A DNA stretch of 36,030 nucleotides from a virus (taxonomy: Duplodnaviria > Heunggongvirae > Uroviricota > Caudoviricetes): positions 1 to 36,030 of the IMG/VR virus record IMGVR_UViG_3300042535_000037, one strand, 5' to 3'. The position numbers were made by a program, and so were the translations under genes. Shown piece after piece: positions 17,509-29,176 of this stretch. Within the stretch, counting starts at the first letter, position 1; the number at the start of each line of letters is the position of its first letter. Under the pieces are notes generated by a model that did not search any database, was not told the origin of the DNA, and saw nothing but the letters and a program-made list of their open reading frames with translations.

Positions 17509-18426
17509 ATGGCTGGAATTACAATTCCGCCACCTTCGGGTGGCATAAGTATACCAAATATCAACGGTGGATTCCAGAATCCACTTGCTCAGAAGAAGCA
17601 GGTGGACCCATTCAAGACCATCGAGGATATCTACACTGAAGACCAAGATAGAACCGTCAGAAAAGTACTCATATATGGACAAGAAGGGGTCGGAAAGACC
17701 CACTTCATGTACACAGCACCAAAACCTCTCTTCATCCTTGCCACTGAGGAACGAACCAAGCTCATCTTGCCAAAATTCGCCAACCTTGATAACAAGAATG
17801 ACATTGGAATAGTGCTTGTCAAATCCTATGATGATGTACTTCGCATGGCAGAGCTCGCAATTAAACGCCTCCAATCTGTCGAAAAAGAGAAAGGAGTCAT
17901 AGGCACAATTGCCATAGACTCAATCTCAACATTCAAAGACTACTGCATGATGAAACGTGCGGTAGAAAATGGATTCGATGGAAGAGACTTTGCTCAAATT
18001 AAATTCTCTCCACGCGATGACTACGGATTCATCAATGCCTATCACGATAAGGTAAGAGATACCATCATAGATAGTGGTTTCAACGTGATTGTAACTGCTA
18101 AGGAAAAGGCAAAATACAACACTACAGACCAATTCAAGATTGATGACTATCTTCCAGAAGGCAAAAATGACAATGCTCATGCATTCGATATCGTAATCAG
18201 AAACCTCATCAAAAATGGTGAGCCTTGGAGTGTCTTCAGAAAGACATCAATTGATGTTGGTATCGGTGGTCGGGAATATAGGATGATGGATTTCGCTGGA
18301 ATGTGTGTCAGTCTTGAAAATTTCAAGAAGAATCAACGTATGTTCACGTTCTCAGACTTCCAGAAACTCAAGAATGTAGAGGCTGCTAGAGAAGCAGCTA
18401 AAGAAAACTCAGAGGCAACTCAATGA
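17509..18426 (+). CDS. AAA_24/Sak4-like P-loop ATPase (putative recombination protein)
   Basis: KVLIYGQEGVGKT Walker A, IAIDSIS Walker B, VIVTA; position next to the SSB-like gene. Confidence 0.75.
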   Translation: MAGITIPPPSGGISIPNINGGFQNPLAQKKQVDPFKTIEDIYTEDQDRTVRKVLIYGQEGVGKTHFMYTAPKPLFILATEERTKLILPKFANLDNKNDIGIVLVKSYDDVLRMAELAIKRLQSVEKEKGVIGTIAIDSISTFKDYCMMKRAVENGFDGRDFAQIKFSPRDDYGFINAYHDKVRDTIIDSGFNVIVTAKEKAKYNTTDQFKIDDYLPEGKNDNAHAFDIVIRNLIKNGEPWSVFRKTSIDVGIGGREYRMMDFAGMCVSLENFKKNQRMFTFSDFQKLKNVEAAREAAKENSEATQ

Positions 18427-19415
18427 AACAGATGTGTATGGATTGCAGTAAGGAGATAGATTCACCTTCTACTGTAACTATTTGTGATTGCGGCTCCGCA
18501 AATGTGGTTCCCGTAGTCGGTAACGTTCAGACTCCAATCGTGAAAAATCCCACAAATAACATCGGATTCGTAGCATCAACCAAGAAAATCTACGAACTTC
18601 TGAAACTGTGCGGTCTTCAGAAAGGAGCAGGCAAGTTTGTCTTTGACAAATACGTTCTTATCGTGAAGCCTGATGGACTCGGAGTATCAGTTATCCAGCA
18701 GACACCAGATGGACAGTTCTACAACTATGGATACGTCAAGAAGTCCTACTTCAACGAATTATGGGGTAACGGCAACATGCCAATCAATGCAATTGAGACT
18801 ATCCCAGACGTTGACTATATGCGAAAGTTCGATAAATGCTACGTCAACTACGATAAAGATAAGGCTGTAGTTCAGGTCTACACAGGAAAAGAACACATCC
18901 TTTCTTCCAGAGCAGAGACAGCAGAAGCAATCATGACAGCCCGCTTCGAGCCTATCAACTTTGACCTTGCTAAGTTCGTACCACTTCCAAAATCAGGTGT
19001 CGTCTTTGACAACATCACATTCGATGTCCGTGTAGCAGACCTGCTCTCTATGGAAGAACTACTCAAGAGAAAGATAGACACAGGAAGCAAGAAGGACAAG
19101 GCTGTATTCTACCCATTCCTGCTCAACGATGAAGGCATATTCCTCTCAATGGGCGATGTAGACAACCCCATTACATCTTCTCTTCACGAAAAGATAGACA
19201 CAATCGAATACAAAAAGCCTGCATCTGCAATGCGTGTCATTGTAGGCGAAGTGCTCACCGATGTTCTCAAGAACCTCGATAAGAGTGCTATCATCCGAAT
19301 CCACGTCATTTCTCCTGAGAATCCAGTATGGGTCTCTACAGAAATCCTTGATGAAGGAAAGGATGTAGGAAGATTTGGATACATCATCTCTACCAAATCC
19401 GAAGAAGAAGAGTAG
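18423..19415 (+). CDS. Putative sliding clamp (PCNA-like) with N-terminal Zn ribbon
   Basis: CMDC...CDC N-terminus; PCNA-like C-terminal pattern VLTDVLKNLDK...IRIHV..PENPVWV....FGYIIS; RFC and PolB nearby. Confidence 0.5.
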   Translation: MKQMCMDCSKEIDSPSTVTICDCGSANVVPVVGNVQTPIVKNPTNNIGFVASTKKIYELLKLCGLQKGAGKFVFDKYVLIVKPDGLGVSVIQQTPDGQFYNYGYVKKSYFNELWGNGNMPINAIETIPDVDYMRKFDKCYVNYDKDKAVVQVYTGKEHILSSRAETAEAIMTARFEPINFDLAKFVPLPKSGVVFDNITFDVRVADLLSMEELLKRKIDTGSKKDKAVFYPFLLNDEGIFLSMGDVDNPITSSLHEKIDTIEYKKPASAMRVIVGEVLTDVLKNLDKSAIIRIHVISPENPVWVSTEILDEGKDVGRFGYIISTKSEEEE

Positions 19416-19430
19416 TCGGAAGACTATATC

Positions 19431-20513
19431 ATGGATGAAACTATTGCTTGGATGTTCCATGCTACACCTCGGTATGTCGGAAATCCCCGACAGACCCTTG
19501 TAGAAAGTGACTATGAAATCACTTCTTACATGGCAGCCAACAGTGGTTTCAACCCATGTTTCATAGGAGTATATCAACAAAACATCATAGACAAAGTATT
19601 TTTCGATATAGACTATGCCTCAATAGACGAAACCCTCAAGGTTTCACAAAAAATGTTTCAATATTGCAAAGACCTAGGAATTAAGCACGTCATCCCTAAC
19701 TGGTCAGGCTCTCGCGGTGCTCATATCTATCCTCTTTTCAAACCTGAAATTCACGATGACCCTGTATACTTACTCCGCAACTTTTCATATGGAGTAATCA
19801 ACGAAACAGGCACGTACTACATCGACAAGGGAAAGAAAGTTCCATATGCAGACACAAGAGTAATAGGCGACCTTCGTAGGCTCTGTCGCTACCCCAACAC
19901 TCAGCGAACTACAGATGGTGGAATTCCAAGAGGTTCCTACTGCATTCCACTCGACCCCGCTCGTTTCATGGACATGGACATCTCTGAAGTCCTAGACCTA
20001 GCCCGTACTCCACAACTCAACATAGAATATGATTTTTCAGTACCTACTAACTCTCTCAAGAGTGTAGCCACTTTCCACGTAGACTACTCAGAATTCAAGT
20101 CATCCAATTTCATTGAAATCGAAGAAGAAATAACAGCAGACTCTCCACATACTGAAACTGGAAAAGCAAGAGCTCTCATGAAAAACATCATCAAACGCCC
20201 TTGCATCTCAAAGTACATCTGCACGAACAACCCACCTGATATGATGAGGGTAGCAGCAGTTATCGAACTTCAGAAACTTGGATACAAGCCAAACTTTATA
20301 TACAACAGACTTGCATCTCTCAACTGGCATGACTTCGACCCCGATGTAACCAAGTATCAAATCTCATCTATATACAAAAAAGGACTTACACCAATCTCTA
20401 AAATGTCCATCAATAATGCCGGATTATGCTTCAATCCAGAAATCAAATGTGGTGAATGCATTCGAAGCCATAGAGAAATTCCAAAAATTCCAAAAAAACA
20501 GGTGATACTATGA
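19431..20513 (+). CDS. Archaeo-eukaryotic primase PriS fused to a PriL/PriX-like C-terminal domain
   Basis: FFDID (DxD), SGSRGAHIY, DLRRLCRYPNT; C-terminal RPCI...RVAAV.EL..LG....DFDPDVTKYQI..I...GLC...C. Confidence 0.8.
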   Translation: MDETIAWMFHATPRYVGNPRQTLVESDYEITSYMAANSGFNPCFIGVYQQNIIDKVFFDIDYASIDETLKVSQKMFQYCKDLGIKHVIPNWSGSRGAHIYPLFKPEIHDDPVYLLRNFSYGVINETGTYYIDKGKKVPYADTRVIGDLRRLCRYPNTQRTTDGGIPRGSYCIPLDPARFMDMDISEVLDLARTPQLNIEYDFSVPTNSLKSVATFHVDYSEFKSSNFIEIEEEITADSPHTETGKARALMKNIIKRPCISKYICTNNPPDMMRVAAVIELQKLGYKPNFIYNRLASLNWHDFDPDVTKYQISSIYKKGLTPISKMSINNAGLCFNPEIKCGECIRSHREIPKIPKKQVIL

Positions 20514-21241
20514 ACCTTGATGTGAAAATAGACTTCCGCGAAAAGAACTCTCAAGTGAATCGTGCATCAATGATGAAAAATTATATCCTTGAACAGAACA
20601 ATGTAGAAATTTTCAAGAATAAAGGAGTAGTTTTCAATCCCACTATAGAATCCCTTCCAGTAGGCGATGTCATCTGTGGAAATGTAGCTGTAGAAATCAA
20701 GATGACTCCCTCGGACCTTATTTCATCTTCTAAAGACGAGCGTCTAAAGAATCAAGTAGAAAACATGTGTGCTAATTTCGAGCATGTCTATCTTATCCTT
20801 ATGTTTTCAGGCTCAGACCTCAGAACACATTGCTCCACTTCTAGAATTCCACCAGAAATGGTACTTGGTCTACTTGCTTCTGTAGAGACTAGAAACAAAG
20901 TTCACGTCAAAAAATACGTAGGTTTCAAAGAAGGCGAAGGTCTCAAAATGGTAATGGATGACCTTCTCAGAATTTTCCCAAAAGCCAACGATGGAAAAGA
21001 AACTGCTATCAATCACAACCCTCAACGTATCCAAGCCTCAACCTCTGACGAGCAAATCAGAGTCCTCACAGGATACCCCATGATTTCTTATGACCGCGCA
21101 AAGAACCTACTTCTCCACTTCGGAACCCTCGACTCTATCTTCCGAGCTTCCGAAAAAGACCTTCTGCAAGTAGACGGAATAGGCAAGAAAATCGCACAAA
21201 AGTTCATAGAAGTCAACCAAAAGCTTTATAACTCTTCATAA
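20510..21241 (+). CDS. ERCC4/XPF-family structure-specific nuclease with HhH2 domain
   Basis: IDFRE, LPVGDV, VEIKMTPSD (ERKxxxD-like); C-terminal AKNLLLHFGTL..I..AS..DL.QVDGIGKKIA. Confidence 0.88.
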   Translation: MNLDVKIDFREKNSQVNRASMMKNYILEQNNVEIFKNKGVVFNPTIESLPVGDVICGNVAVEIKMTPSDLISSSKDERLKNQVENMCANFEHVYLILMFSGSDLRTHCSTSRIPPEMVLGLLASVETRNKVHVKKYVGFKEGEGLKMVMDDLLRIFPKANDGKETAINHNPQRIQASTSDEQIRVLTGYPMISYDRAKNLLLHFGTLDSIFRASEKDLLQVDGIGKKIAQKFIEVNQKLYNSS

Positions 21242-21253
21242 CTTTTTCTCACT

Positions 21254-21691
21254 ATGAAAACATACACTGTAGAAATCATAGACCTGAAGCAAGACTTCGG
21301 TATGGGAATGCCTGATGTCAAAGACATAGAAGCAGCAGACAATAACAGCGCAAGAACCAAAGCCCGTAGAATGCTCTCTAATCAAGGTCTAGTAGAAGGA
21401 AAGGACTACAAAATCACTTCAGTCAAACTCTCCGAACTCGATAAAGATGAAAAGCTGAGATACGTTCTTTTTATTCTGGAAAATAATCATGTTGACGCAA
21501 ATATGATTGACTACTACAATGGAAAGAAAAAGGCAAAACCAAACATGAAAGGGCTTGAGGGAATTCCTCAGTCAGTATGGATAAAAGCCTTTGACATAGC
21601 CAAGAAAAAAGGCAAAATAAGTGTAAAGGTATCCAACGGTGCTGGCAATCATCCAGACTATATTTCCTACAGAGAATATATGAAAAGATAA
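21254..21691 (+). CDS. Hypothetical protein (145 aa); N-terminal domain resembles 29553-29753
   Basis: ORF with a TATA-like box upstream; shares an A.DN..AR......G....DYKI..K motif. Confidence 0.7.
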   Translation: MKTYTVEIIDLKQDFGMGMPDVKDIEAADNNSARTKARRMLSNQGLVEGKDYKITSVKLSELDKDEKLRYVLFILENNHVDANMIDYYNGKKKAKPNMKGLEGIPQSVWIKAFDIAKKKGKISVKVSNGAGNHPDYISYREYMKR

Positions 21692-21758
21692 TCACGACAA
21701 AAATCATACAATTTTGTCGCTATTAAATTTTTTATTTTTTTATTTTTACCAATATCTT

Positions 21759-21766
21759 TTTATATA
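21759..21766 (+). promoter_or_regulatory. TATA box of tnpB
   Basis: TTTATATA ending 20 nt before the GTG start; fits a leaderless archaeal transcript. Confidence 0.65.
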
Positions 21767-21786
21767 TTAAATTCCATTATACTACT

Positions 21787-22926
21787 GTGGCAAAGAAAGA
21801 CGATGGAATAGTAAGAATCGGATACAAGTACCGAGCTTACCCCACCCCTGAACAAAAAGTCTTAATCGACCAGCAGTTCGGAGCTTGTCGCTACGTCTAC
21901 AACTTCGCACTACGCCTCAAACAAAAGGCATACAAGTACGCAAGGGTCAGCCTCGATATCACAAAAGATATCAGACCCCTACTTACCCACATGAAAAAAG
22001 AAGATAAGTGGGAGTGGCTTGCAGATGCCGAATCTCAATCACTATATGAGGCATATCGTAACTTAGAGAACGCTTACGATAGGTTCTTTGACCCTGAATT
22101 AAAAGCAGGGTTCCCACAGTTCAAAACCAAGAAGAATCCTAAGCAGTCGTTCCAAATAACCAACGGTGCAGTGATACCCAATTTTGATGCAGGTTACGTG
22201 CGTATACCCAAGATAGGCAATATACCTATACGTGTCCACAAAGACTTCGTAGGAACTCCAAAGACCGTTACAGTGTCAAGGAAGCCAAGTGGCAAGTACT
22301 ATATCTCAATTCTTAACGAGACAGGAAAGCTATATCCTGAGACTCAATCCTATGAGCCTCACTCAACCCTTGGCATTGACCTTGGACTAAAGAACTTTGC
22401 AGCCCTTTCAACAGGTGAGCTTATACCCAACTCTCACTTTAAAAAGGATTCAGAGCCACGAATCAAGTGCCTACAGCGCAGACTATCCCATAAGAAGATA
22501 GGTTCTGCCAACTTCAAGAAAGCCAAGCTCAAGCTTGCTCGCCTTGAAGAACACATTTCCAATCAACGCTCCTACTTCCACCACAACCTGAGTGCTCGAT
22601 TAGTTAGCGAAAACCAAGCTATTATAGTCGAAAACCTCAATGTTGCTGGTATGCTGAAGAATCCTAAACTTGCAAAATCAATAGCAGACGTAGGATGGAG
22701 TACATTTATTAACCAATTAGAATATAAATCCAAATTACAGGGCAAATATTTCAATAAGGTAGGTAGGTTCTTCCCATCATCGAAGCTATGCTCCGAATGT
22801 GGATACAAGCTACCTTCACTATCCCTTGACATCAGAGAGTGGACTTGCCCTGTCTGTAACACAACTCACGATAGAGACTTCAATGCCTCTATTAATATCA
22901 GAAACACGGCTGTTCAAGTCGGATGA
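21787..22926 (+). CDS. tnpB: TnpB (IS200/IS605 family) RNA-guided nuclease, CRISPR-associated (Cas12-like intermediate candidate)
   Basis: N-terminal YKYRAYPTPEQ...FGACRYVYN; RuvC-I GIDLG, RuvC-II VENLNV, Zn finger CSEC...CPVC, RuvC-III HDRDFNA; all three acidic catalytic residues present. Confidence 0.95.
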   Translation: MAKKDDGIVRIGYKYRAYPTPEQKVLIDQQFGACRYVYNFALRLKQKAYKYARVSLDITKDIRPLLTHMKKEDKWEWLADAESQSLYEAYRNLENAYDRFFDPELKAGFPQFKTKKNPKQSFQITNGAVIPNFDAGYVRIPKIGNIPIRVHKDFVGTPKTVTVSRKPSGKYYISILNETGKLYPETQSYEPHSTLGIDLGLKNFAALSTGELIPNSHFKKDSEPRIKCLQRRLSHKKIGSANFKKAKLKLARLEEHISNQRSYFHHNLSARLVSENQAIIVENLNVAGMLKNPKLAKSIADVGWSTFINQLEYKSKLQGKYFNKVGRFFPSSKLCSECGYKLPSLSLDIREWTCPVCNTTHDRDFNASINIRNTAVQVG

Positions 22927-23030
22927 GCCTACCGAGAGGTCTCACACATCCCATAGGGATAGAGACTCGATGAAGTAGGAAGTAACTTACCCCGAACTCG
23001 CTCGTCAGCGACAACGCTATCAGCTACAGG
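22927..23030 (+). ncRNA. Putative omegaRNA/tracrRNA-like scaffold (may begin inside the tnpB 3' end)
   Basis: Long hairpin 22928-22979 (CCTAC/GTAGG, CGA/TCG, GTCTC/GAGAC, ATCCC/GGGAT) carrying the IS605 right-end-like motif TCGATGAAGTAGGAAG; second hairpin TCGCT/AGCGA at 22998-23011; no TATA box. Confidence 0.65.
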
Positions 23031-23431
23031 GTTAACGACTAAGGTCAGTGACAAGTTGCATTGAAACACAGAAGAAAGTAATGTGGCAGAAGTACCAATT
23101 CTGGTTAACGACTAAGGTCAGTGACAAGTTGCATTGAAACGCAAGAAAAACTCCCATAGATGCAAAAATGGTAGCCTAGTTAACGACTAAGGTCAGTGAC
23201 AAGTTACATTGAAACGAAACCAAACGGTTGACGTGGTAATTATTAGATACTGTCAATGACAAAGTTCAGTGATTTGTTGCATTAAAACTAATCAAGTCCA
23301 AATATAGTGCGATGGCTATTTGTGTCAACAACAAAGTTCGTTGATAAGTTACATTGAAACTGAGACAAGGATACCTCAAAAGGTGTGATGACAAATCAAC
23401 GGCAAAGTTTAGTGATTTGTTGTATTGAAAC
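23031..23431 (+). CRISPR. CRISPR mini-array: 6 repeats of 37 nt and 5 spacers of 36, 38, 36, 35 and 34 nt
   Basis: Repeats at 23031-23067, 23104-23140, 23179-23215, 23252-23288, 23324-23360 and 23395-23431; consensus GTTAACGACTAAGGTCAGTGACAAGTTGCATTGAAAC; R1=R2, R3 has 1 mismatch, R4-R6 are degenerate. Confidence 0.97.
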
Positions 23432-23517
23432 ACGAAAAATTCTTGTATTTTTTCTATAAACAAATATATAAATACAAGAATCATAACGCTTATATACTTA
23501 TATTTCAATGATAAAGT

Positions 23518-23640
23518 ATGACCAAGACTAAAAAGCAAAAAGTATTCAAGGATTATATAGGCGTGGATTTTGAAGAATTTTTACGTTTAGCTTTAATTGC
23601 AAGTATAATAATTTTAACTATAGATATAATGTTATTATGA
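23518..23640 (+). CDS. Small (40 aa) basic-N/C-terminal-TM protein, below the ORF-track cutoff
   Basis: CTTATATA at 23489-23496; translates MTKTKKQKVFKDYIGVDFEEFLRLALIASIIILTIDIMLL*. Confidence 0.5.
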   Translation: MTKTKKQKVFKDYIGVDFEEFLRLALIASIIILTIDIMLL

Positions 23641-23646
23641 GGAAAT

Positions 23647-23970
23647 ATGGAAAATAAAAATAAAAGATATTTAATAACATTTATATTAGCAATAATTTTA
23701 TATTTAGTTAAATCATTGATATTTAATATATTTTTTGTTTTAGCTATATCTTACGTTATATATATTTTCTTAAATAGTGAAATAAAAAATGATGAACAAA
23801 AATTTTCAAAGGTTAATCGTACACTTGAATTGGTATTTATTATTCTTGGTGTATATTTAGTATGGATTTCATTGGTGGATAAAAATAGTATTTATAACAT
23901 CAGTGGAACCTATGTAAATGGTAAAATAGACTTAGTGATAGAAAAAGCTGCTTCCATTCTAAGCTTCTAA
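23647..23970 (+). CDS. AT-rich small membrane protein (107 aa)
   Basis: Three hydrophobic segments; markedly AT-rich DNA. Confidence 0.6.
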   Translation: MENKNKRYLITFILAIILYLVKSLIFNIFFVLAISYVIYIFLNSEIKNDEQKFSKVNRTLELVFIILGVYLVWISLVDKNSIYNISGTYVNGKIDLVIEKAASILSF

Positions 23971-24027
23971 TCCATTACCTTTTTATACATAAAAACCTAT
24001 AATCTACCAATTGAATGAGGTCACTAA

Positions 24028-25074
24028 ATGGACATTTTAGATACAATTGAATTTACGGCTCCTGAAGGAGCAGTTGTAGAAACCGTCACACCGATAGATA
24101 CTGCTTTGTGGTTCGAAAAATATAGACCAAAAAAGCTTGATGATGTGATAGGTCAGGAAGACGTTGTGAAAATTGCGAAATCAAATATTCTAGCAGGCAA
24201 CGTCACAAACTACATATTTGCGGGAGAATCCGGTATAGGAAAGACCACTATTGCTGTCTGTATGGCAAGAGAACTTTTCGGAGACAACTACCGTATTGCA
24301 TTCACAGAATATAACGCATCTGATGACAGAGGCATCAACTTTATTCGTGAAGATATCAAATCCATTGCTTCTAAGAATGCAGGTATGGGAGTCAAGCTGA
24401 GAATTATTCTTCTGGATGAATCCGACCAACTCACTGATGACGCACAGAACGCTCTCAGGCGTATCATAGAGCAATATTCTGCTTACGCTCGCTTCATATT
24501 CACCTGTAACAACAGTTCCCGCATCATAGATGCAATCAAATCAAGATGTACCATGATACGTTTTTCACGTATGAGCGATGAAAACATTTCAAAAATAATT
24601 GAGTACATTGCATTCAATGAGGGTCTCACTATTGCACCGGAAGCCTACCAAGTCTTGATAGACCATGCTGAAGGCGACAACCGTAAGGTCATCAACCTTC
24701 TCCAAAACATAGCGGTAGTCACAAAAGACATCAATGCTTCTACTGCACAGCGTTTCGCCAAGGTTCCAGACAGAGTACTCCTGAAGCAAATCCTAACTAC
24801 AGCCTTTTCAGGTGAATTCGTGAAAGCCCGCCAAACCATGCTCGACACGTACATCAACAACGGTTTTGATGCACTGGATATAATCAAGGCTTGCTACAAG
24901 GTGCTCCCTGAGATGGTAGACGGAATTCCACTCATGAAATCCATGAGTCTCCTTGGAGAAATAGAGCACAGGCTCAATGCTGGCGATAACCCACACATCC
25001 AGCTAAACGCAATGCTCGCGCAACTCGCTCTCATCCAACTGATTCCGGCATCATGCACAGCGATGAGAACCTGA
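24028..25074 (+). CDS. rfcS: Replication factor C small subunit
   Basis: WFEKYRP, GESGIGKT, NASDDRGI, LDESDQLTDDAQNALRR, SRC. Confidence 0.95.
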   Translation: MDILDTIEFTAPEGAVVETVTPIDTALWFEKYRPKKLDDVIGQEDVVKIAKSNILAGNVTNYIFAGESGIGKTTIAVCMARELFGDNYRIAFTEYNASDDRGINFIREDIKSIASKNAGMGVKLRIILLDESDQLTDDAQNALRRIIEQYSAYARFIFTCNNSSRIIDAIKSRCTMIRFSRMSDENISKIIEYIAFNEGLTIAPEAYQVLIDHAEGDNRKVINLLQNIAVVTKDINASTAQRFAKVPDRVLLKQILTTAFSGEFVKARQTMLDTYINNGFDALDIIKACYKVLPEMVDGIPLMKSMSLLGEIEHRLNAGDNPHIQLNAMLAQLALIQLIPASCTAMRT

Positions 25075-25328
25075 TGTTCTATGTGTATATCCTTGACTGC
25101 GGAAAATCCGTATACACAGGACATACACAAGACCTTCTTGTACGATGGCAACAGCATAAGAGCGGAAAGGGTGCTAAATTCACAAAGTTGAATCCACCCA
25201 AATCCCTCTTATACTATGAAATCTATCCTACTAGAAGTGAAGCGATGAAACGCGAAATTTTCATCAAGAAACTAACAAGGAAGCAAAAGCTGGAATTATG
25301 TCAAAATCAGAAACCGAAGAACAACTAG
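25074..25328 (+). CDS. Standalone GIY-YIG nuclease (UPF0213/YhbQ-like)
   Basis: MFYVYILDC..SVYTGHTQDL..RWQQH.SGKGAKFT...EAMKRE..IKKL; TGATG overlap with the rfcS stop. Confidence 0.88.
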   Translation: MFYVYILDCGKSVYTGHTQDLLVRWQQHKSGKGAKFTKLNPPKSLLYYEIYPTRSEAMKREIFIKKLTRKQKLELCQNQKPKNN

Positions 25329-25486
25329 CACACAGAATCTACAAATCGTGGTGCGTTGGTCTTCTCAAAGAAGATGATATCACAAATGACCAGCTAATAC
25401 TACTCTACAGACATTATCCATTCATATTTACTCCATATCAGAAATTTCTCATGAAAAGGTGGCTACAAGAAAATGGCATCCGATGA
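25298..25486 (+). CDS. Small hypothetical protein (62 aa)
   Basis: Fills the gap and overlaps both neighbours in operon fashion. Confidence 0.55.
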   Translation: MSKSETEEQLAHRIYKSWCVGLLKEDDITNDQLILLYRHYPFIFTPYQKFLMKRWLQENGIR

Positions 25487-26366
25487 AATGGCAAAAGAAG
25501 ACCTAATGGTATTTTCACCAACATCCCTAACCGTGTATCAAAAATGTCCAAGAAAATACTACTTGGCGAAGATAGCGAAGGCGAAACCTCTCCCAAAAGA
25601 CAAGACAGGTGCAGAGTTTGGAAAATGTGGTCACTCCATTCTTGAAAAATTCGAAAGCAACTTTAACATAGATGAACTTATAGCCGTCAACGATGTATCC
25701 CGCTACTTTCATGCCCTGCTTGAAAAAATGATAAGCGAAAATTGGGATTTCAAAATACAGAATCAATGGAACACCAACGATAAATTGAAAAATGAAATGA
25801 AGGAAATCCTCAACGTATACATAGAAGACAGAATTGTTGTTTTCAACGAAAGAGCAGCACAGAACAAACTTGATACATACTTCCCTATTGCTGTAGAAGA
25901 AGATATTCGTTCTGAAAAATTCAACATCAGATGCATTATCGACAAACATAACGCCAACCATACCCTTCTCGACTACAAGTTCTCCAAGTACTTCCCCGAA
26001 ATTCTGCTCAAGCAATATTCTGCTCTTACTCCTACAGAAAAAGCCGAATATGACAAGACCAAACTTCAATACGAAATACAAGCCCTGATGAACGCCCTTG
26101 TAGTATACGACAAGTACAATGTACTTCCAGCAAAGATGACTTTCTTCTTCCCTCGATTCATGAAGTCTGCTCATCATGGAATATACGTAGTGGAAATCAC
26201 ACAACAACGTATCAATTGGATTGCCAATCTCATCAATCAAGCAGCAGAGAAAGTAAGAAGCAATAATTTCCAGAAAACTGAAGATAAATCCGTATGTGCA
26301 GAATATGGTGGTTGCGAATACATGCACTACTGCGACTTCTCTGAAATATGTATCATGAGCCTGTAA
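25473..26366 (+). CDS. Cas4/AddB-like PD-(D/E)xK nuclease with four-Cys Fe-S motif
   Basis: SPTSL..YQKCPRKYY, G..GH..LE, IIDK, DYK, YEIQ, C-terminal CAEYGGCEYMHYC. Confidence 0.85.
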   Translation: MASDEMAKEDLMVFSPTSLTVYQKCPRKYYLAKIAKAKPLPKDKTGAEFGKCGHSILEKFESNFNIDELIAVNDVSRYFHALLEKMISENWDFKIQNQWNTNDKLKNEMKEILNVYIEDRIVVFNERAAQNKLDTYFPIAVEEDIRSEKFNIRCIIDKHNANHTLLDYKFSKYFPEILLKQYSALTPTEKAEYDKTKLQYEIQALMNALVVYDKYNVLPAKMTFFFPRFMKSAHHGIYVVEITQQRINWIANLINQAAEKVRSNNFQKTEDKSVCAEYGGCEYMHYCDFSEICIMSL

Positions 26367-29176
26367 TCATGCTTCCACAGAACATTCTCTCCAACATCAG
26401 AAATTTCGCTACTCAAAACGCGAAACCAAAAGAAGAGGAATTCGAATATGTGTTTCCTACTTCATTAGAATATGAGGAAACAGAAGGAGTAGCCACCATA
26501 AAAATGTTTGGGCGTTCTCTTGATGGTAGACGTGTCCAGAAAATCATCACTGGATTCATGCCATATTTCTATGCACCTCTGGACCTTACTTTTCGAGAAG
26601 ATGTTCATTCCGGCATCCACAAAATAGAACGTGCTCAACCTGACGGCTCAAGGTTTTTCGCCATAGACAACTCAGCAGTCATGAAAGTGATAGCAACTAA
26701 ACCTTCTATCATTGGTGGAAAATCCGAAAAAATAAACTACTTGAGAGACCTCTTCACTCATTCTTTCGAAGCAGATATCCCCTACGTAGACAGAGCTCGT
26801 ATAGACTTAGGTCTCAATGATTTCGTTCGCGTTCCAAAATCCAATATATTTTCATATACTCAAATTCAACATCCCACTGAAGAAGAACTTAAATTAGAAA
26901 AATCCAAATATCCAAAATTCAGCTTGAGAATTCAGATAGCTGATATTGAAAACCTAGATGACAAATCAATCAAGGATGCGAAAAAAGGTCTCTCAAAAGT
27001 GGTATGCCTAACCGTATACGACAATTATGATAAAACATACCATGTCTTCACATGCTTATTTCTTTCAGATATGCAGAAGGAAATAGTAAGAGAAAAACTT
27101 CGTAATCACTGGAAAGATTCACAGAAATATAGCTCCGAATCTGAATACAATATTGAATACAATATCACCGAAGGAGAAACCGAAGAAGAAGCAGAAAAAA
27201 ACATGTTCGAAGCCTATAAAGTTTGGACCCGTCAAAACTATCCTGATATCCTAGCAGGCTGGAACTTCAAGGAATACGATATTCCTGTAGAGCTTTGTAG
27301 AGCCGGAAACCTTGGAGTAGAAATCAATTCCTTTTCCGAAGTCAACAAGGTTTCAAAATACTTCAACCAAGAAACACTATCCGACTCCTTTAAAATTCGC
27401 GGTCTCCTAGTACTAGACCTAATGAGTATGTATGACAAGATTCAGCCCAAGGCTCTTCGTTTTACTAACCTCAATCATATCTCCAACATAGAACTCGGAA
27501 CTCAGAAAATAGGTAGAGAATCAATCATCCAGCTTGTACACACCGATATACCACATCTCATCGCCTATAACATAATAGATGTCCAACTCACTAAACTCAT
27601 AGAAGAAAAAGCCCACCTGATTGAATTCTTCAGTATGCTTTCTTTCAAATCCTTCACAGAGATAGGAACCACATCAAACTCTCAGTTCATCGATAAGCTT
27701 CTCCTGAAATTCGTGCATGGTCGTTTCTGCGTTCCAACTAAAGTCAAATTAGAAAAAGATGAAGATGAAGATGATGACTTTATAGGTGGAAAAGTGTACG
27801 ATTCCACAGCAGGACTTCACGAATATATCATAGTTCTCGACTATTCAGGTCTGTATCCCTCTATTATGCGTTCCCTGAATATCTCTATCGAAACTAAAGA
27901 CCCTAACGGTGAAATCCTTGCGGCTAATGGAATCCGTTTCCGCAAATCCCCTCGCGGTGTAGTTCCATCCATTCTTGAAATGCTTCTAGATGAAAGAAAT
28001 CACTATAAGAAACTTGAAAAAGAAGCAAAGAAAGCTAGAGATGATGAACTGGAACACATCTACAACATGAAACAAATCTCCGTGAAAATCCTGATGAATG
28101 CATTCTTCGGAGTTTTGGGATGGGTAGACTTCAGGCTCAACGACATAGACACTGCTGAAGCAATCACATCCACAGGACAAGACCTCTCAATGAACACCAA
28201 GACCTACGTTGAATCTATGGGCTTCCAGTGCATCTACGGAGACACAGACAGCCTATTCATACGTCTGGGAAGAGAAGTCACTCCTGAAGAAGCTAGAGAC
28301 ATTGCAAAAGACCTCTGCTCCAAAATCAACGCCTTCCTTGGAGACTTCGCTAAGGAACGCTACGGCATAGACTCTCATTTCTTCAACATCGAGTTTGACA
28401 AGTTTGCAAAAACCCTCTTCCAACCCATTAAGAAATCTACAAAGGCAGGAGAAGCAGAAACAGGAGCAAAGAAGCGTTACGCTGGCTACTTCTACAACTA
28501 CGACAAGCAAGAATATGAATTCAAGGCTCAGGGTTTTGAACTCAAGAGAGCATCCTCTTCTCTTCTAACTCAAGAGTTCCAAGAGACCCTTCTACGCATG
28601 ATTCTCAATAAAACATCAGACAGAGAAATCAAAAAATTCTATACAGAAACAAAGGAAAAACTCTATTCAGGTGGAGTAGACCAACAGAAAATAGGTCTCC
28701 GCTACAACATCAAAAAAGATATAGTAGACTTCTCTCTTAATCCAGACCTAGTAGGCAATACTAATTTCATGGCTAAATCCAAGGGTCTCACAGGAACTCT
28801 CAACGCCAACTATATCCTCGGAAGAAAATACGGCATAGGAGACAAGGTAATGCTCTACTTCCTAGACAAATCCAAATCTCTAGCAGGTGTAGATATGCTC
28901 TGTCTCGACTACGAAGAAGAGATACCTTCTGAATTCACCATCAGCTACGACCAATGTTGGGAATCCTTCATCAGAGACCCTACAGAAAGCGTACTGAAAG
29001 CCTACGGCATATCCTTCGAGTACATTGAAACTGGTCTCAAAACCAACAATACCATGAATGTAGTCATTGAAGGAGTAGAAGTCAAACAAACCCAACTCAA
29101 GCAAGCCATCGAAAAACCAAAAAAGATTAAATTAAATACAAAAGAAAATAGAATAAGACTATTTGAAAATGAGTAA
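26348..29176 (+). CDS. polB: Family B DNA polymerase with 3'-5' exonuclease (start may be 26369)
   Basis: ExoI ADIE, ExoII GWNFKEYD, ExoIII YNIID; DYSGLYPS, KILMNAFFG, YGDTDSLF; no intein apparent. Confidence 0.95.
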   Translation: MYHEPVIMLPQNILSNIRNFATQNAKPKEEEFEYVFPTSLEYEETEGVATIKMFGRSLDGRRVQKIITGFMPYFYAPLDLTFREDVHSGIHKIERAQPDGSRFFAIDNSAVMKVIATKPSIIGGKSEKINYLRDLFTHSFEADIPYVDRARIDLGLNDFVRVPKSNIFSYTQIQHPTEEELKLEKSKYPKFSLRIQIADIENLDDKSIKDAKKGLSKVVCLTVYDNYDKTYHVFTCLFLSDMQKEIVREKLRNHWKDSQKYSSESEYNIEYNITEGETEEEAEKNMFEAYKVWTRQNYPDILAGWNFKEYDIPVELCRAGNLGVEINSFSEVNKVSKYFNQETLSDSFKIRGLLVLDLMSMYDKIQPKALRFTNLNHISNIELGTQKIGRESIIQLVHTDIPHLIAYNIIDVQLTKLIEEKAHLIEFFSMLSFKSFTEIGTTSNSQFIDKLLLKFVHGRFCVPTKVKLEKDEDEDDDFIGGKVYDSTAGLHEYIIVLDYSGLYPSIMRSLNISIETKDPNGEILAANGIRFRKSPRGVVPSILEMLLDERNHYKKLEKEAKKARDDELEHIYNMKQISVKILMNAFFGVLGWVDFRLNDIDTAEAITSTGQDLSMNTKTYVESMGFQCIYGDTDSLFIRLGREVTPEEARDIAKDLCSKINAFLGDFAKERYGIDSHFFNIEFDKFAKTLFQPIKKSTKAGEAETGAKKRYAGYFYNYDKQEYEFKAQGFELKRASSSLLTQEFQETLLRMILNKTSDREIKKFYTETKEKLYSGGVDQQKIGLRYNIKKDIVDFSLNPDLVGNTNFMAKSKGLTGTLNANYILGRKYGIGDKVMLYFLDKSKSLAGVDMLCLDYEEEIPSEFTISYDQCWESFIRDPTESVLKAYGISFEYIETGLKTNNTMNVVIEGVEVKQTQLKQAIEKPKKIKLNTKENRIRLFENE

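Follow-up and report, generated by a model that had tools for sequence, protein, structure and literature searches.

Why does a viral tnpB gene run into a short CRISPR array at the place where a transposon would end? The question is raised by a stretch of 36,030 nucleotides (nt), here called the window, which is the first 36 kb of the 183,084-base-pair (bp) Caudoviricetes record IMGVR_UViG_3300042535_000037. An original prediction, made from the letters of the window alone, held that the RNA scaffold of TnpB, known as omegaRNA, is retained where the leader of the array should be, and that it serves the array as its tracrRNA (trans-activating CRISPR RNA), pairing with the repeats of the CRISPR RNAs (crRNAs). 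Every feature that it named stands in the sequence where it had been placed, and our comparative analysis largely agrees with the interpretation. The window probably holds a split-omegaRNA, minimal CRISPR effector system of the TranC-like or proto-type-V kind, and we regard this as the best reading because its tnpB appears intact, single-copy at the locus and under purifying selection, and has no transposon ends. The features on which the argument turns are the following.

21787-22926, + strand: tnpB, 379 amino acids (aa), with HTH_OrfB_IS605, OrfB_IS605 (RuvC) and TNB zinc-finger domains (Pfam)
22907-22921, + strand: stem 1, 5 bp (22907-11 with 22917-21) and loop GUUCA (22912-22916), from covariance alignment and fold
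22928-22979, + strand: long stem, equivalent of stems 2-3, carrying GAUGAAGUAGGAAG, from covariance alignment and fold
22982-22988, + strand: anti-repeat GUAACUU, in the position of the 5' strand of the lost stem 4, offset from GGAAG as in relatives
22989-23030, + strand: linker, 42 nt, G+C-rich, with a small hairpin, from sequence and fold
23031-23431, + strand: six 37-nt repeats (R1 to R6) at 23031, 23104, 23179, 23252, 23324 and 23395, the array starting 104 nt after the tnpB stop
23068-23103, 23141-23178, 23216-23251, 23289-23323 and 23361-23394: five spacers of 34-38 nt

The unsplit form of this RNA can be read from relatives. TnpB is known to process its own mRNA into omegaRNA (PMC10278001). 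A covariance model from homologous 3' flanks, the check proposed with the original prediction, was built from the 3' ends of 22 related tnpB genes and describes an RNA of 109 positions. The 22 relatives have in common a stem 1 of 5 bp whose loop is GGAAC, a long stem ending in GAAUGAAgCAGGAAG, a terminal hairpin (stem 4, 6 bp, its loop often UUUA) and an 8-nt tail, UAGUUCAC (UA-GUUC-AC), after which the sequences diverge, as expected of the guide; the order is GGAAG, stem 4, tail and guide. In this structure 97.7% of cells are paired and 21 pairs show compensatory change, and none of 500 shuffles was as good. The relatives also share a pseudoknot between loop GAAC and tail GUUC at positions -6 to -3 (98.9% of cells paired), with a single compensatory change, GAGC:GCUC, in locus L093. 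This register is that of the pseudoknot seen by cryo-electron microscopy in ISDra2, where -5 to -3 pair with -103 to -105 beside stem 1 and -6 and -2 contribute non-canonical pairs (PMC10097598). The UUUA tetraloop of ISDra2 stem 4 has been described as the point where, by nature, a tracrRNA-like half meets a crRNA-like one (PMC10097598).

The model matches the window at 22890-22990 with 26 bits (E 2e-6 over ten sources, 2e-8 locally), against 36-112 bits for the canonical relatives and every other tnpB-linked match. In the alignment stems 1-3 are present and the 20 positions of stem 4 are deleted. The tail GGUAGUUCAC, which in the family (UAGUUCAC) occupies the 8 nt before the guide, is missing, and tnpB has no complete omegaRNA at its 3' end that runs to a transposon right end. 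On this alignment, 22890-22990 is a true TnpB omegaRNA scaffold that lacks stem 4 and the tail, in agreement with the earlier proposal that the array replaces the right-end terminal hairpin. The long stem, which had been likened to IS605 and omegaRNA motifs, has at its base CCUAC (22928-32) paired with GUAGG (22975-79), with an inner hairpin inside. It is the minimum-free-energy fold of the scaffold alone, its counterpart covaries in the 22 related omegaRNAs, and its motif GAUGAAGUAGGAAG corresponds to the near-invariant GAAUGAAgCAGGAAG of the family. The 5-bp hairpin noticed with it proved to be stem 1. Rfam gave no match in the window at gathering thresholds; at E up to 1, the sole match was of the long stem (22928-22981) to RAGATH-18 (RF03064), with 26.3 bits against a gathering score of 44.9 (E 0.013), and was too weak to use.

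What the scaffold lacks, the repeats could supply. Registers for the test were fixed beforehand from the related omegaRNAs. In the window GGAAG is directly followed by UAACUU, and the repeat ends in AAGUUGC-AU-UGAA-AC, so that the elements stand in the same registers as in the relatives. GUAACUU, which had been predicted to pair with repeat positions 23-29, falls where the ancestral stem 4 splits and pairs there with AAGUURC (-15 to -9) with a duplex energy of -7.3 kcal/mol. R1 and R2 form six Watson-Crick pairs and one G-U pair, and in R3 and R5 an A in place of G turns the G-U into a seventh Watson-Crick pair, as had been foreseen; R5 keeps these seven pairs and the full pseudoknot despite 8 changes elsewhere.

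The second pairing joins the stem-1 loop UUCA (22913-22916) to repeat UGAA at -6 to -3, which is the pseudoknot register. Loop G22912 then stands opposite A-2, as in the G:A pair of ISDra2. The loop is near-invariant GGAAC in relatives and GUUCA in the window, which is what the new tail needs. The original prediction had named TTCAA (22913-22917), the complement of TTGAA, only as an alternative contact; its place in the stem-1 loop, in the register of ISDra2 and the relatives, now makes it the stronger choice. With the stem-4 strand it gives two repeat:anti-repeat contacts, as had been suggested by analogy with Cas12f.

The prediction itself warned that matches so short could be chance. With shuffled repeats, the stem pairing arises in its exact register at a rate of 5.8e-4 and the pseudoknot pairing at 7.9e-3; both together were found in 0 of 100,000 shuffles in exact register, and at 4.3e-4 when a slip of a few bases was allowed, which speaks against that concern. 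The scaffold alone folds with AAGUAACUUAC unpaired, and every repeat leaves its 3' 15 nt free. Because the plain fold of 22860-23067 is not significant alone (z = -1.5), the support is comparative, not thermodynamic. Computationally, the window shows two marks of a TranC system: a tracrRNA-like scaffold derived from a right end, an anti-repeat that pairs with the repeat, and a TnpB-like effector beside a CRISPR array in the same orientation.

The contact that the prediction had placed first fared less well:

22879-22886, + strand: TTCAATGC, perfect 8-nt complement of repeat GCATTGAA, within the D-F-N-A codons of the RuvC-III motif; role doubtful

The complementarity is real (GCATTGAA is also given as GCAUUGAA), and TTCAATGC pairs with R1 in an unconstrained fold. 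As a second contact it is not convincing: it lies 21 nt 5' of stem 1, outside the modelled scaffold and every conserved element, the repeat bases to which it would pair are those that the pseudoknot needs, and most of its letters are fixed because the conserved RuvC-III codons underlie them. An 8-mer complement would arise by chance at about 0.02 (an estimate). It is doubtful that TTCAATGC is an extra or alternative contact, a role for which homology gives no support.

Within the linker, positions 23004-23014 (GTCAGCGACAA) match 10 of 11 bases of repeat positions 14-24 (GTCAGTGACAA), with a rough chance of about 0.007; this core match could be what is left of an older repeat or of the junction event. 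The linker as a whole was rejected as a degenerate 'repeat 0', with 15 of 37 bases matching in register and no proper spacer. Its hairpin (around 22998-23012) was likewise rejected as the true stem 4, being 15 nt out of register with nothing 3' of it that can form the pseudoknot. Pairing of linker GAAC (22994-22997) with loop GUUC is possible, but such a 4-mer in 42 nt has a chance of about 0.15, and the pairing is also in the wrong order relative to stem 4.

The array fits its proposed part. In each repeat, positions 1-22 form a 5' hairpin and the remaining 15 nt, AAGUURC-AUUGAAAC, are a single-stranded 3' part; across the six repeats these 15 nt vary less than the 5' 22 nt (16% versus 29%). 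R1 and R2 do not differ; there is 1 change in R3 and there are 8-10 in each of R4-R6, the degenerate repeats lying at the end far from tnpB, beside an AT-rich trailer (19% G+C). The five spacers are unrelated to one another and to the viral genome. Tandem Repeats Finder reported no array in the window because the repeats are spaced. The repeat was not found as an array in IMG/VR (single chance matches only), nor was it found in JGI metagenome contigs.

Signals that could bound a transcript stand at the two ends of the module:

21759-21766, + strand: TATA-like box TTTATATA, about 25 nt 5' of the GTG start of tnpB, read from the sequence
23439-23481, + strand: perfect 12-bp inverted repeat with a T6 run (23448-23453), just after repeat 6

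The box lies in a stretch (21692-21786) of 18% G+C and is likely the promoter of a leaderless transcript of tnpB, scaffold and array, and the inverted repeat with its T run is likely the transcript end. Between the tnpB stop (22924-22926) and repeat 1 (23031), the gap is 53% G+C against 18-19% in the stretches before tnpB and after the array, and contains no TATA-like or other promoter element, just as the original prediction had said of a gap in leader position. A scan for bacterial promoters and terminators was set aside as not applicable to archaea.

The protein is a full TnpB. It has a RuvC-like fold with the D-E-D triad, a TNB zinc finger and an N-terminal HTH/WED-REC part, and ISDra2 TnpB matches its residues 13-376, the full length, at 1.4e-68 in the PDB. 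The match to LaTranC in the PDB is weaker (3.9e-34) and covers the C-terminal part only, and Cas12f is only remotely similar (E about 1e-4). All 73 invariant residues of a 30-member alignment are kept, among them D198, E282, D364 and the four Cys of two CxxC pairs. The closest relatives, 44-52% identical, are encoded in Methanosarcinales and Methanomicrobiales genomes and on virus-like contigs; among 5.8 billion proteins no relative above 52% identity was found, which suggests a separate lineage. INPHARED contains no close relative of the locus, and none of the fetched viral loci shows synteny with its neighbor genes.

A close relative of the window tnpB does exist outside the source sediment sample. 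Two freshwater metagenomes contain contigs 95-97% identical to parts of the gene (window 22026-22334 and 22606-22643). No RNA run carrying the sequence was found among the sequencing runs, and contigs from the runs spanned only the repeat and part of tnpB. Two 151-nt pieces from the freshwater contigs differ from the window tnpB by 4 and 8 letters, and 5 of the 5 listed differences in tnpB are synonymous third-position changes. From such comparisons the gene appears to be intact and under purifying selection. It is also immobile: the element has no right-end tail, no second copy of tnpB in the genome, and no Y1 TnpA, Cas1 or Cas6 was found in the 183-kb genome. Neither multiple copies nor a TnpA, the marks of a mobile TnpB, were thus observed.

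Further evidence comes from six virus-like loci that form one clade of related TnpBs with 99% support (L006/L007, L008, L089, L090, L091 and L092). Each locus opens with an AT-rich stretch that resembles a promoter and then a free-standing scaffold; next come 1-4 repeats (37-38 nt) with their spacers and one truncated repeat, after which tnpB follows, and a canonical omegaRNA closes the series. The scaffolds and arrays lie at these positions:

L090:2175-2500, scaffold and array
L091:2078-2500, scaffold and array
L092:2230-2480, scaffold and array
L006:2605-3000, scaffold and array
L008:2786-3000, scaffold and array
L089:296-510, scaffold and array

These upstream scaffolds match the same covariance model with 25-32 bits and likewise lack stem 4. 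Their loop GGUAC matches the repeat tail UA-GUACC-U (the repeats end in UAGUACCU), and their stem-4 strand AUGAUA, which follows an AAGAA motif, pairs with repeat UAUCAU; CCUGUAUC pairs with GAUACAGG in most of the six loci. The downstream omegaRNAs of the same genes have loop GGAAC with tail GUUCA. Overall there are three pseudoknot sequences; the register does not change, and every loop fits the tail that belongs to it. L090, L091 and L092 have near-identical flanks and different spacers. Different spacers and matched scaffolds together indicate that TnpBs of this group do use arrays, and by the same logic the two pairings of the window are the expected ones. No targets for the six-locus spacers were found in the sequence data searched. 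One TnpB of this clade may use two classes of guide, and the repeats, plainly duplicated omegaRNA ends in their sequence, look like the duplication route to an array. In a free tree the window TnpB falls outside the clade, and the approximately unbiased (AU) test does not reject a single clade (p = 0.47).

Upstream of the promoter-like stretches in this clade there is what appears to be the end of another omegaRNA, a UUUAG-loop hairpin followed by GGGAUGAAAGC or GAUGAAGCAGAAC, which may be a remnant of an earlier element:

L090:2050-2095, omegaRNA-end-like fragment
L092:2108-2150, omegaRNA-end-like fragment
L006:2440-2500, omegaRNA-end-like fragment
L089:150-215, omegaRNA-end-like fragment

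The mechanism that we propose for the window is as follows. TnpB would no longer be a transposon gene and would work, or recently have worked, as a minimal CRISPR effector. The ancestral omegaRNA would have been split at the loop of stem 4, its 5' part (22905-22988: stem 1, long stem and the 5' strand of stem 4) becoming a tracrRNA-like scaffold at the 3' end of tnpB, and its 3' part being supplied by the last 15 nt of each repeat, which would give stem 4 its 3' strand, the pseudoknot its second strand and the guide the two bases that precede it. A single transcript probably runs from the tnpB promoter through gene, scaffold and array to the T-run after repeat 6; this is the simplest arrangement because a TATA-like box precedes tnpB, the gap is promoterless and the degenerate repeats are at the far end. 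The scaffold would pair through GUAACUU:AAGUURC and loop UUCA:UGAA, its partner being repeat 1 with spacer 1 in cis, or else processed units in trans. Pairing would rebuild the TnpB-bound fold, with a spacer in the place of the guide from the transposon flank, and the system could be directed against competing mobile elements. From transcription and processing to TnpB binding, DNA cleavage and use against other elements, these are steps that we infer.

Several observations weigh against the split-omegaRNA reading. At 7 bp and 4-5 bp, both duplexes are short. In R4 no more than 5 of 7 stem pairs and 3 of 4 pseudoknot pairs remain, and R6 keeps 5 of 7, two of them G-U. Since the nearest relative in the databases searched is 52% identical, there is no covariation within the window's own lineage. 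The spacers, at 34-38 nt, exceed the roughly 16-nt guide of TnpB, and for the five spacers no protospacers were found in the virus itself, the fetched loci, INPHARED phages or, with the first 20-21 nt of each spacer, IMG/VR; in 284 Methanosarcinales genomes six matches (E 2e-4 to 8e-3 per genome, 80-90% identity) are at chance level. The window TnpB deviates at 31 of 72 near-invariant columns, where any other member deviates at 15 or fewer, and these deviations could mean altered function rather than adaptation. Finally, the 37-nt repeat, its GT start and its end in ATTGAAAC resemble class 1 repeats, which a split omegaRNA alone does not explain.

This last point is the base of a rival that we rate as unlikely, in which the array is a virus-borne mini-CRISPR array for the class 1 (type I-B/III) machinery of the host. 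Virus-borne mini-arrays are known in archaeal viruses, and many class 1 systems have ATTGAAAC as the 8-nt handle of their crRNAs. Cleavage by host Cas6 would fall 8 nt short of each spacer, and host effectors would use the crRNAs against competing viruses. The adjoining tnpB would be left over from an unrelated insertion sequence (IS) that has lost its right end, and the complementarities would be coincidental. The small 5' hairpin of the repeat and the spacer lengths fit class 1, and a virus without its own Cas6 or Cas1 is what one expects of a hijacker. Arrays with 30- or 37-nt repeats ending in ATTGAAAC occur in 63 of 121 sampled Methanosarcinales genomes, where a control pattern gave zero in nearly all.

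Apart from length and GT start, however, the likeness to the sampled host repeats is confined to the handle. Beyond the last 8 nt the best sampled host repeat matches 14 of 29 bases, a level attained by 10 of 300 shuffles, and a gapped comparison gave no significant score. The recovered host repeats have G before ATTGAAAC where the window repeat has C, and no array ending in TTRCATTGAAAC was found in the 284 genomes (at most 4 scattered matches per strand per genome). Archaeal-virus mini-arrays that use host Cas proteins copy the host repeat closely. The window resembles them in its short array, its host-type 8-nt handle and the virus without cas genes, but shares only the last 8 nt, and its repeat is matched to the adjoining TnpB scaffold. 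The mini-array account leaves the two complementarities in homologous register and the change of loop from GGAAC to GUUCA unexplained. By that account tnpB, deprived of stem 4 and tail, ought to have no use, but it is intact and differs from a close relative by synonymous changes; in addition, repeat 1 is preceded by no promoter or AT-rich leader and the gap is filled by the TnpB scaffold.

A variant within the split-omegaRNA reading, which we likewise rate as unlikely, combines the two accounts. A TnpB element would have landed beside a class 1-type array (37 nt, ATTGAAAC) and its scaffold would then have adapted. Stem 4 and the tail would have been lost, and the loop change from GGAAC to GUUCA and the new 5' strand GUAACUU would be compensatory changes by which the adapted scaffold reads the class 1 repeat end as the crRNA half. 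The same transcripts could serve both the viral TnpB and host Cas6/Cascade, and new spacers might be added in trans by the Cas1-Cas2 of the host. Such a capture covers both sets of facts, because it explains the handle together with the pairings, the altered loop and a TnpB that is under selection though its element is incomplete. Two routes to array-linked TnpB have been described, duplication of an omegaRNA segment and insertion beside an existing array (PMC10691335), and the window may represent the insertion route.

It is improbable that only the first unit matters, with scaffold, linker, repeat 1 and spacer 1 forming one omegaRNA-like guide to a fixed target and the other repeats being a by-product of tandem duplication without a role as trans crRNAs. 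The scaffold is indeed contiguous with repeat 1, both pairings are possible in cis, repeats 4-6 are degenerate with R4 and R6 pairing less well, the genome has no adaptation gene, and no spacer target was found in the databases searched. Duplication alone, however, does not give spacers that are mutually unrelated and unrelated to the genome. R5 retains seven Watson-Crick pairs and the pseudoknot, the 3' 15 nt of the repeats are the less variable part, and loci of the related clade with shared flanks hold different spacers. Very improbable is a decaying relic, in which the right end was lost beside an old array and neither nuclease nor array is now used: the long tnpB branch (1.06 versus a median of 0.19 in the tree), the 31 deviations, the degenerate distal repeats and the absence of targets in the databases searched would suit it, but the frame is open, the 73 invariant residues including the catalytic and zinc-binding ones are kept, the differences from the close relative are synonymous only, R1 equals R2 and the pairings are specific. 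The long branch and the deviations would rather reflect a changed constraint after domestication than decay.

Under the split-omegaRNA reading the window takes its place among several known systems. Jin et al. (Cell, 2025, as cited in PMC13565253) reportedly traced the passage from TnpB to Cas12 to a splitting of the right-end RNA into tracrRNA and crRNA, and the intermediates bear the name TranC. CauTranC9 is a phage-borne TranC from a Caudoviricetes genome, with no enlarged domains, 38-nt repeats and an array of 5 (bioRxiv 10.64898/2026.03.27.714800). Like TranC (LaTranC, PDB 9JFO; CauTranC9), the window has a TnpB-sized nuclease beside a short array without adaptation genes, and its guide would come from a functional split of the right-end RNA into tracrRNA-like and crRNA-like parts; like CauTranC9 in particular, it is virus-borne and lacks enlarged domains. 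Unlike TranC, compared here through LaTranC alone, the window protein is nearer to canonical TnpB (ISDra2, 1.4e-68, against LaTranC, 3.9e-34); further differences are an archaeal host range and a repeat with the class 1 handle ATTGAAAC.

With ISDra2 TnpB (PDB 8H1J, 8EXA; PMC10097598) the window shares the protein architecture, the pseudoknot of the stem-1 loop with -6 to -3 and the long middle stem. The pseudoknot is GAA:UUC in ISDra2 and UUCA:UGAA in the window. In ISDra2 the terminal stem 4 stands just before the guide, and a single RNA ends at the transposon right end with a fixed guide from the flank, whereas in the window stem 4 is broken into two strands, and its second strand occurs six times, once in every repeat, beside different spacers. 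Cas12f (type V-F) is similar in its two repeat:anti-repeat contacts, one of which is the conserved pseudoknot, its small effector and its downstream array; it differs in its enlarged REC and WED domains, its dimeric state and a tracrRNA that forms a unit of its own, where in the window the scaffold is the 3' end of the mRNA for the effector. TnpB beside CRISPR arrays has also been reported, without an RNA model, from extrachromosomal elements of Methanoperedens (bioRxiv 10.1101/2023.08.02.551345). These arrays and the V-U* groups (PMC10691335) resemble the window in that a TnpB lies by an array on Methanosarcinales-related mobile elements and spacer-directed action of TnpB has been proposed, but unlike here no model of scaffold-to-repeat pairing was given. 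A bacterial array-linked member of the same broad TnpB group was also seen: at L087:2770-3010, a Segatella copri relative (38% identical) is followed by four 36-nt repeats (GATGAACATGCA...GTACAAC).

The setting of the module is archaeal. The record has 127-bp direct terminal repeats, and tnpB and the array lie within an archaeal-type replication module (window 17509-29176, all genes on the + strand) that encodes an AAA_24 ATPase, an ERCC4/XPF-like HhH nuclease, an RFC-type clamp loader, a PD-(D/E)XK nuclease and a family B DNA polymerase; we assign the host to Methanosarcinales-type archaea. Elsewhere in the genome there is a second TnpB of 371 aa, 25% identical to that of the window (G000, about 132865-133996, minus strand; L272:1501-2632), whose 3' end overlaps a canonical omegaRNA end (stem 4 and GGUAGUUUAC). 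By its appearance this is a usual IS-type copy within the same virus.

On the split-omegaRNA reading, the window is a fresh natural example of the origin of CRISPR-Cas12 from a transposon, an event of a kind already known. Natural intermediates near canonical TnpB are few, and here each base of the split can be compared with unsplit relatives and the ISDra2 structure, in a protein without added domains, in an archaeal virus, and with defined, testable pairings of 7 nt and 4-5 nt, while the sister clade retains both omegaRNA and array. If the capture of a class 1-type array were the true course of events, the window and the six-locus group would show, in viruses that are related, both of the routes by which TnpB is proposed to have become Cas12. 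The locus also raises the question whether a type V-like effector can adopt a class 1 repeat. If active, its 379-aa nuclease would be a very small programmable enzyme.

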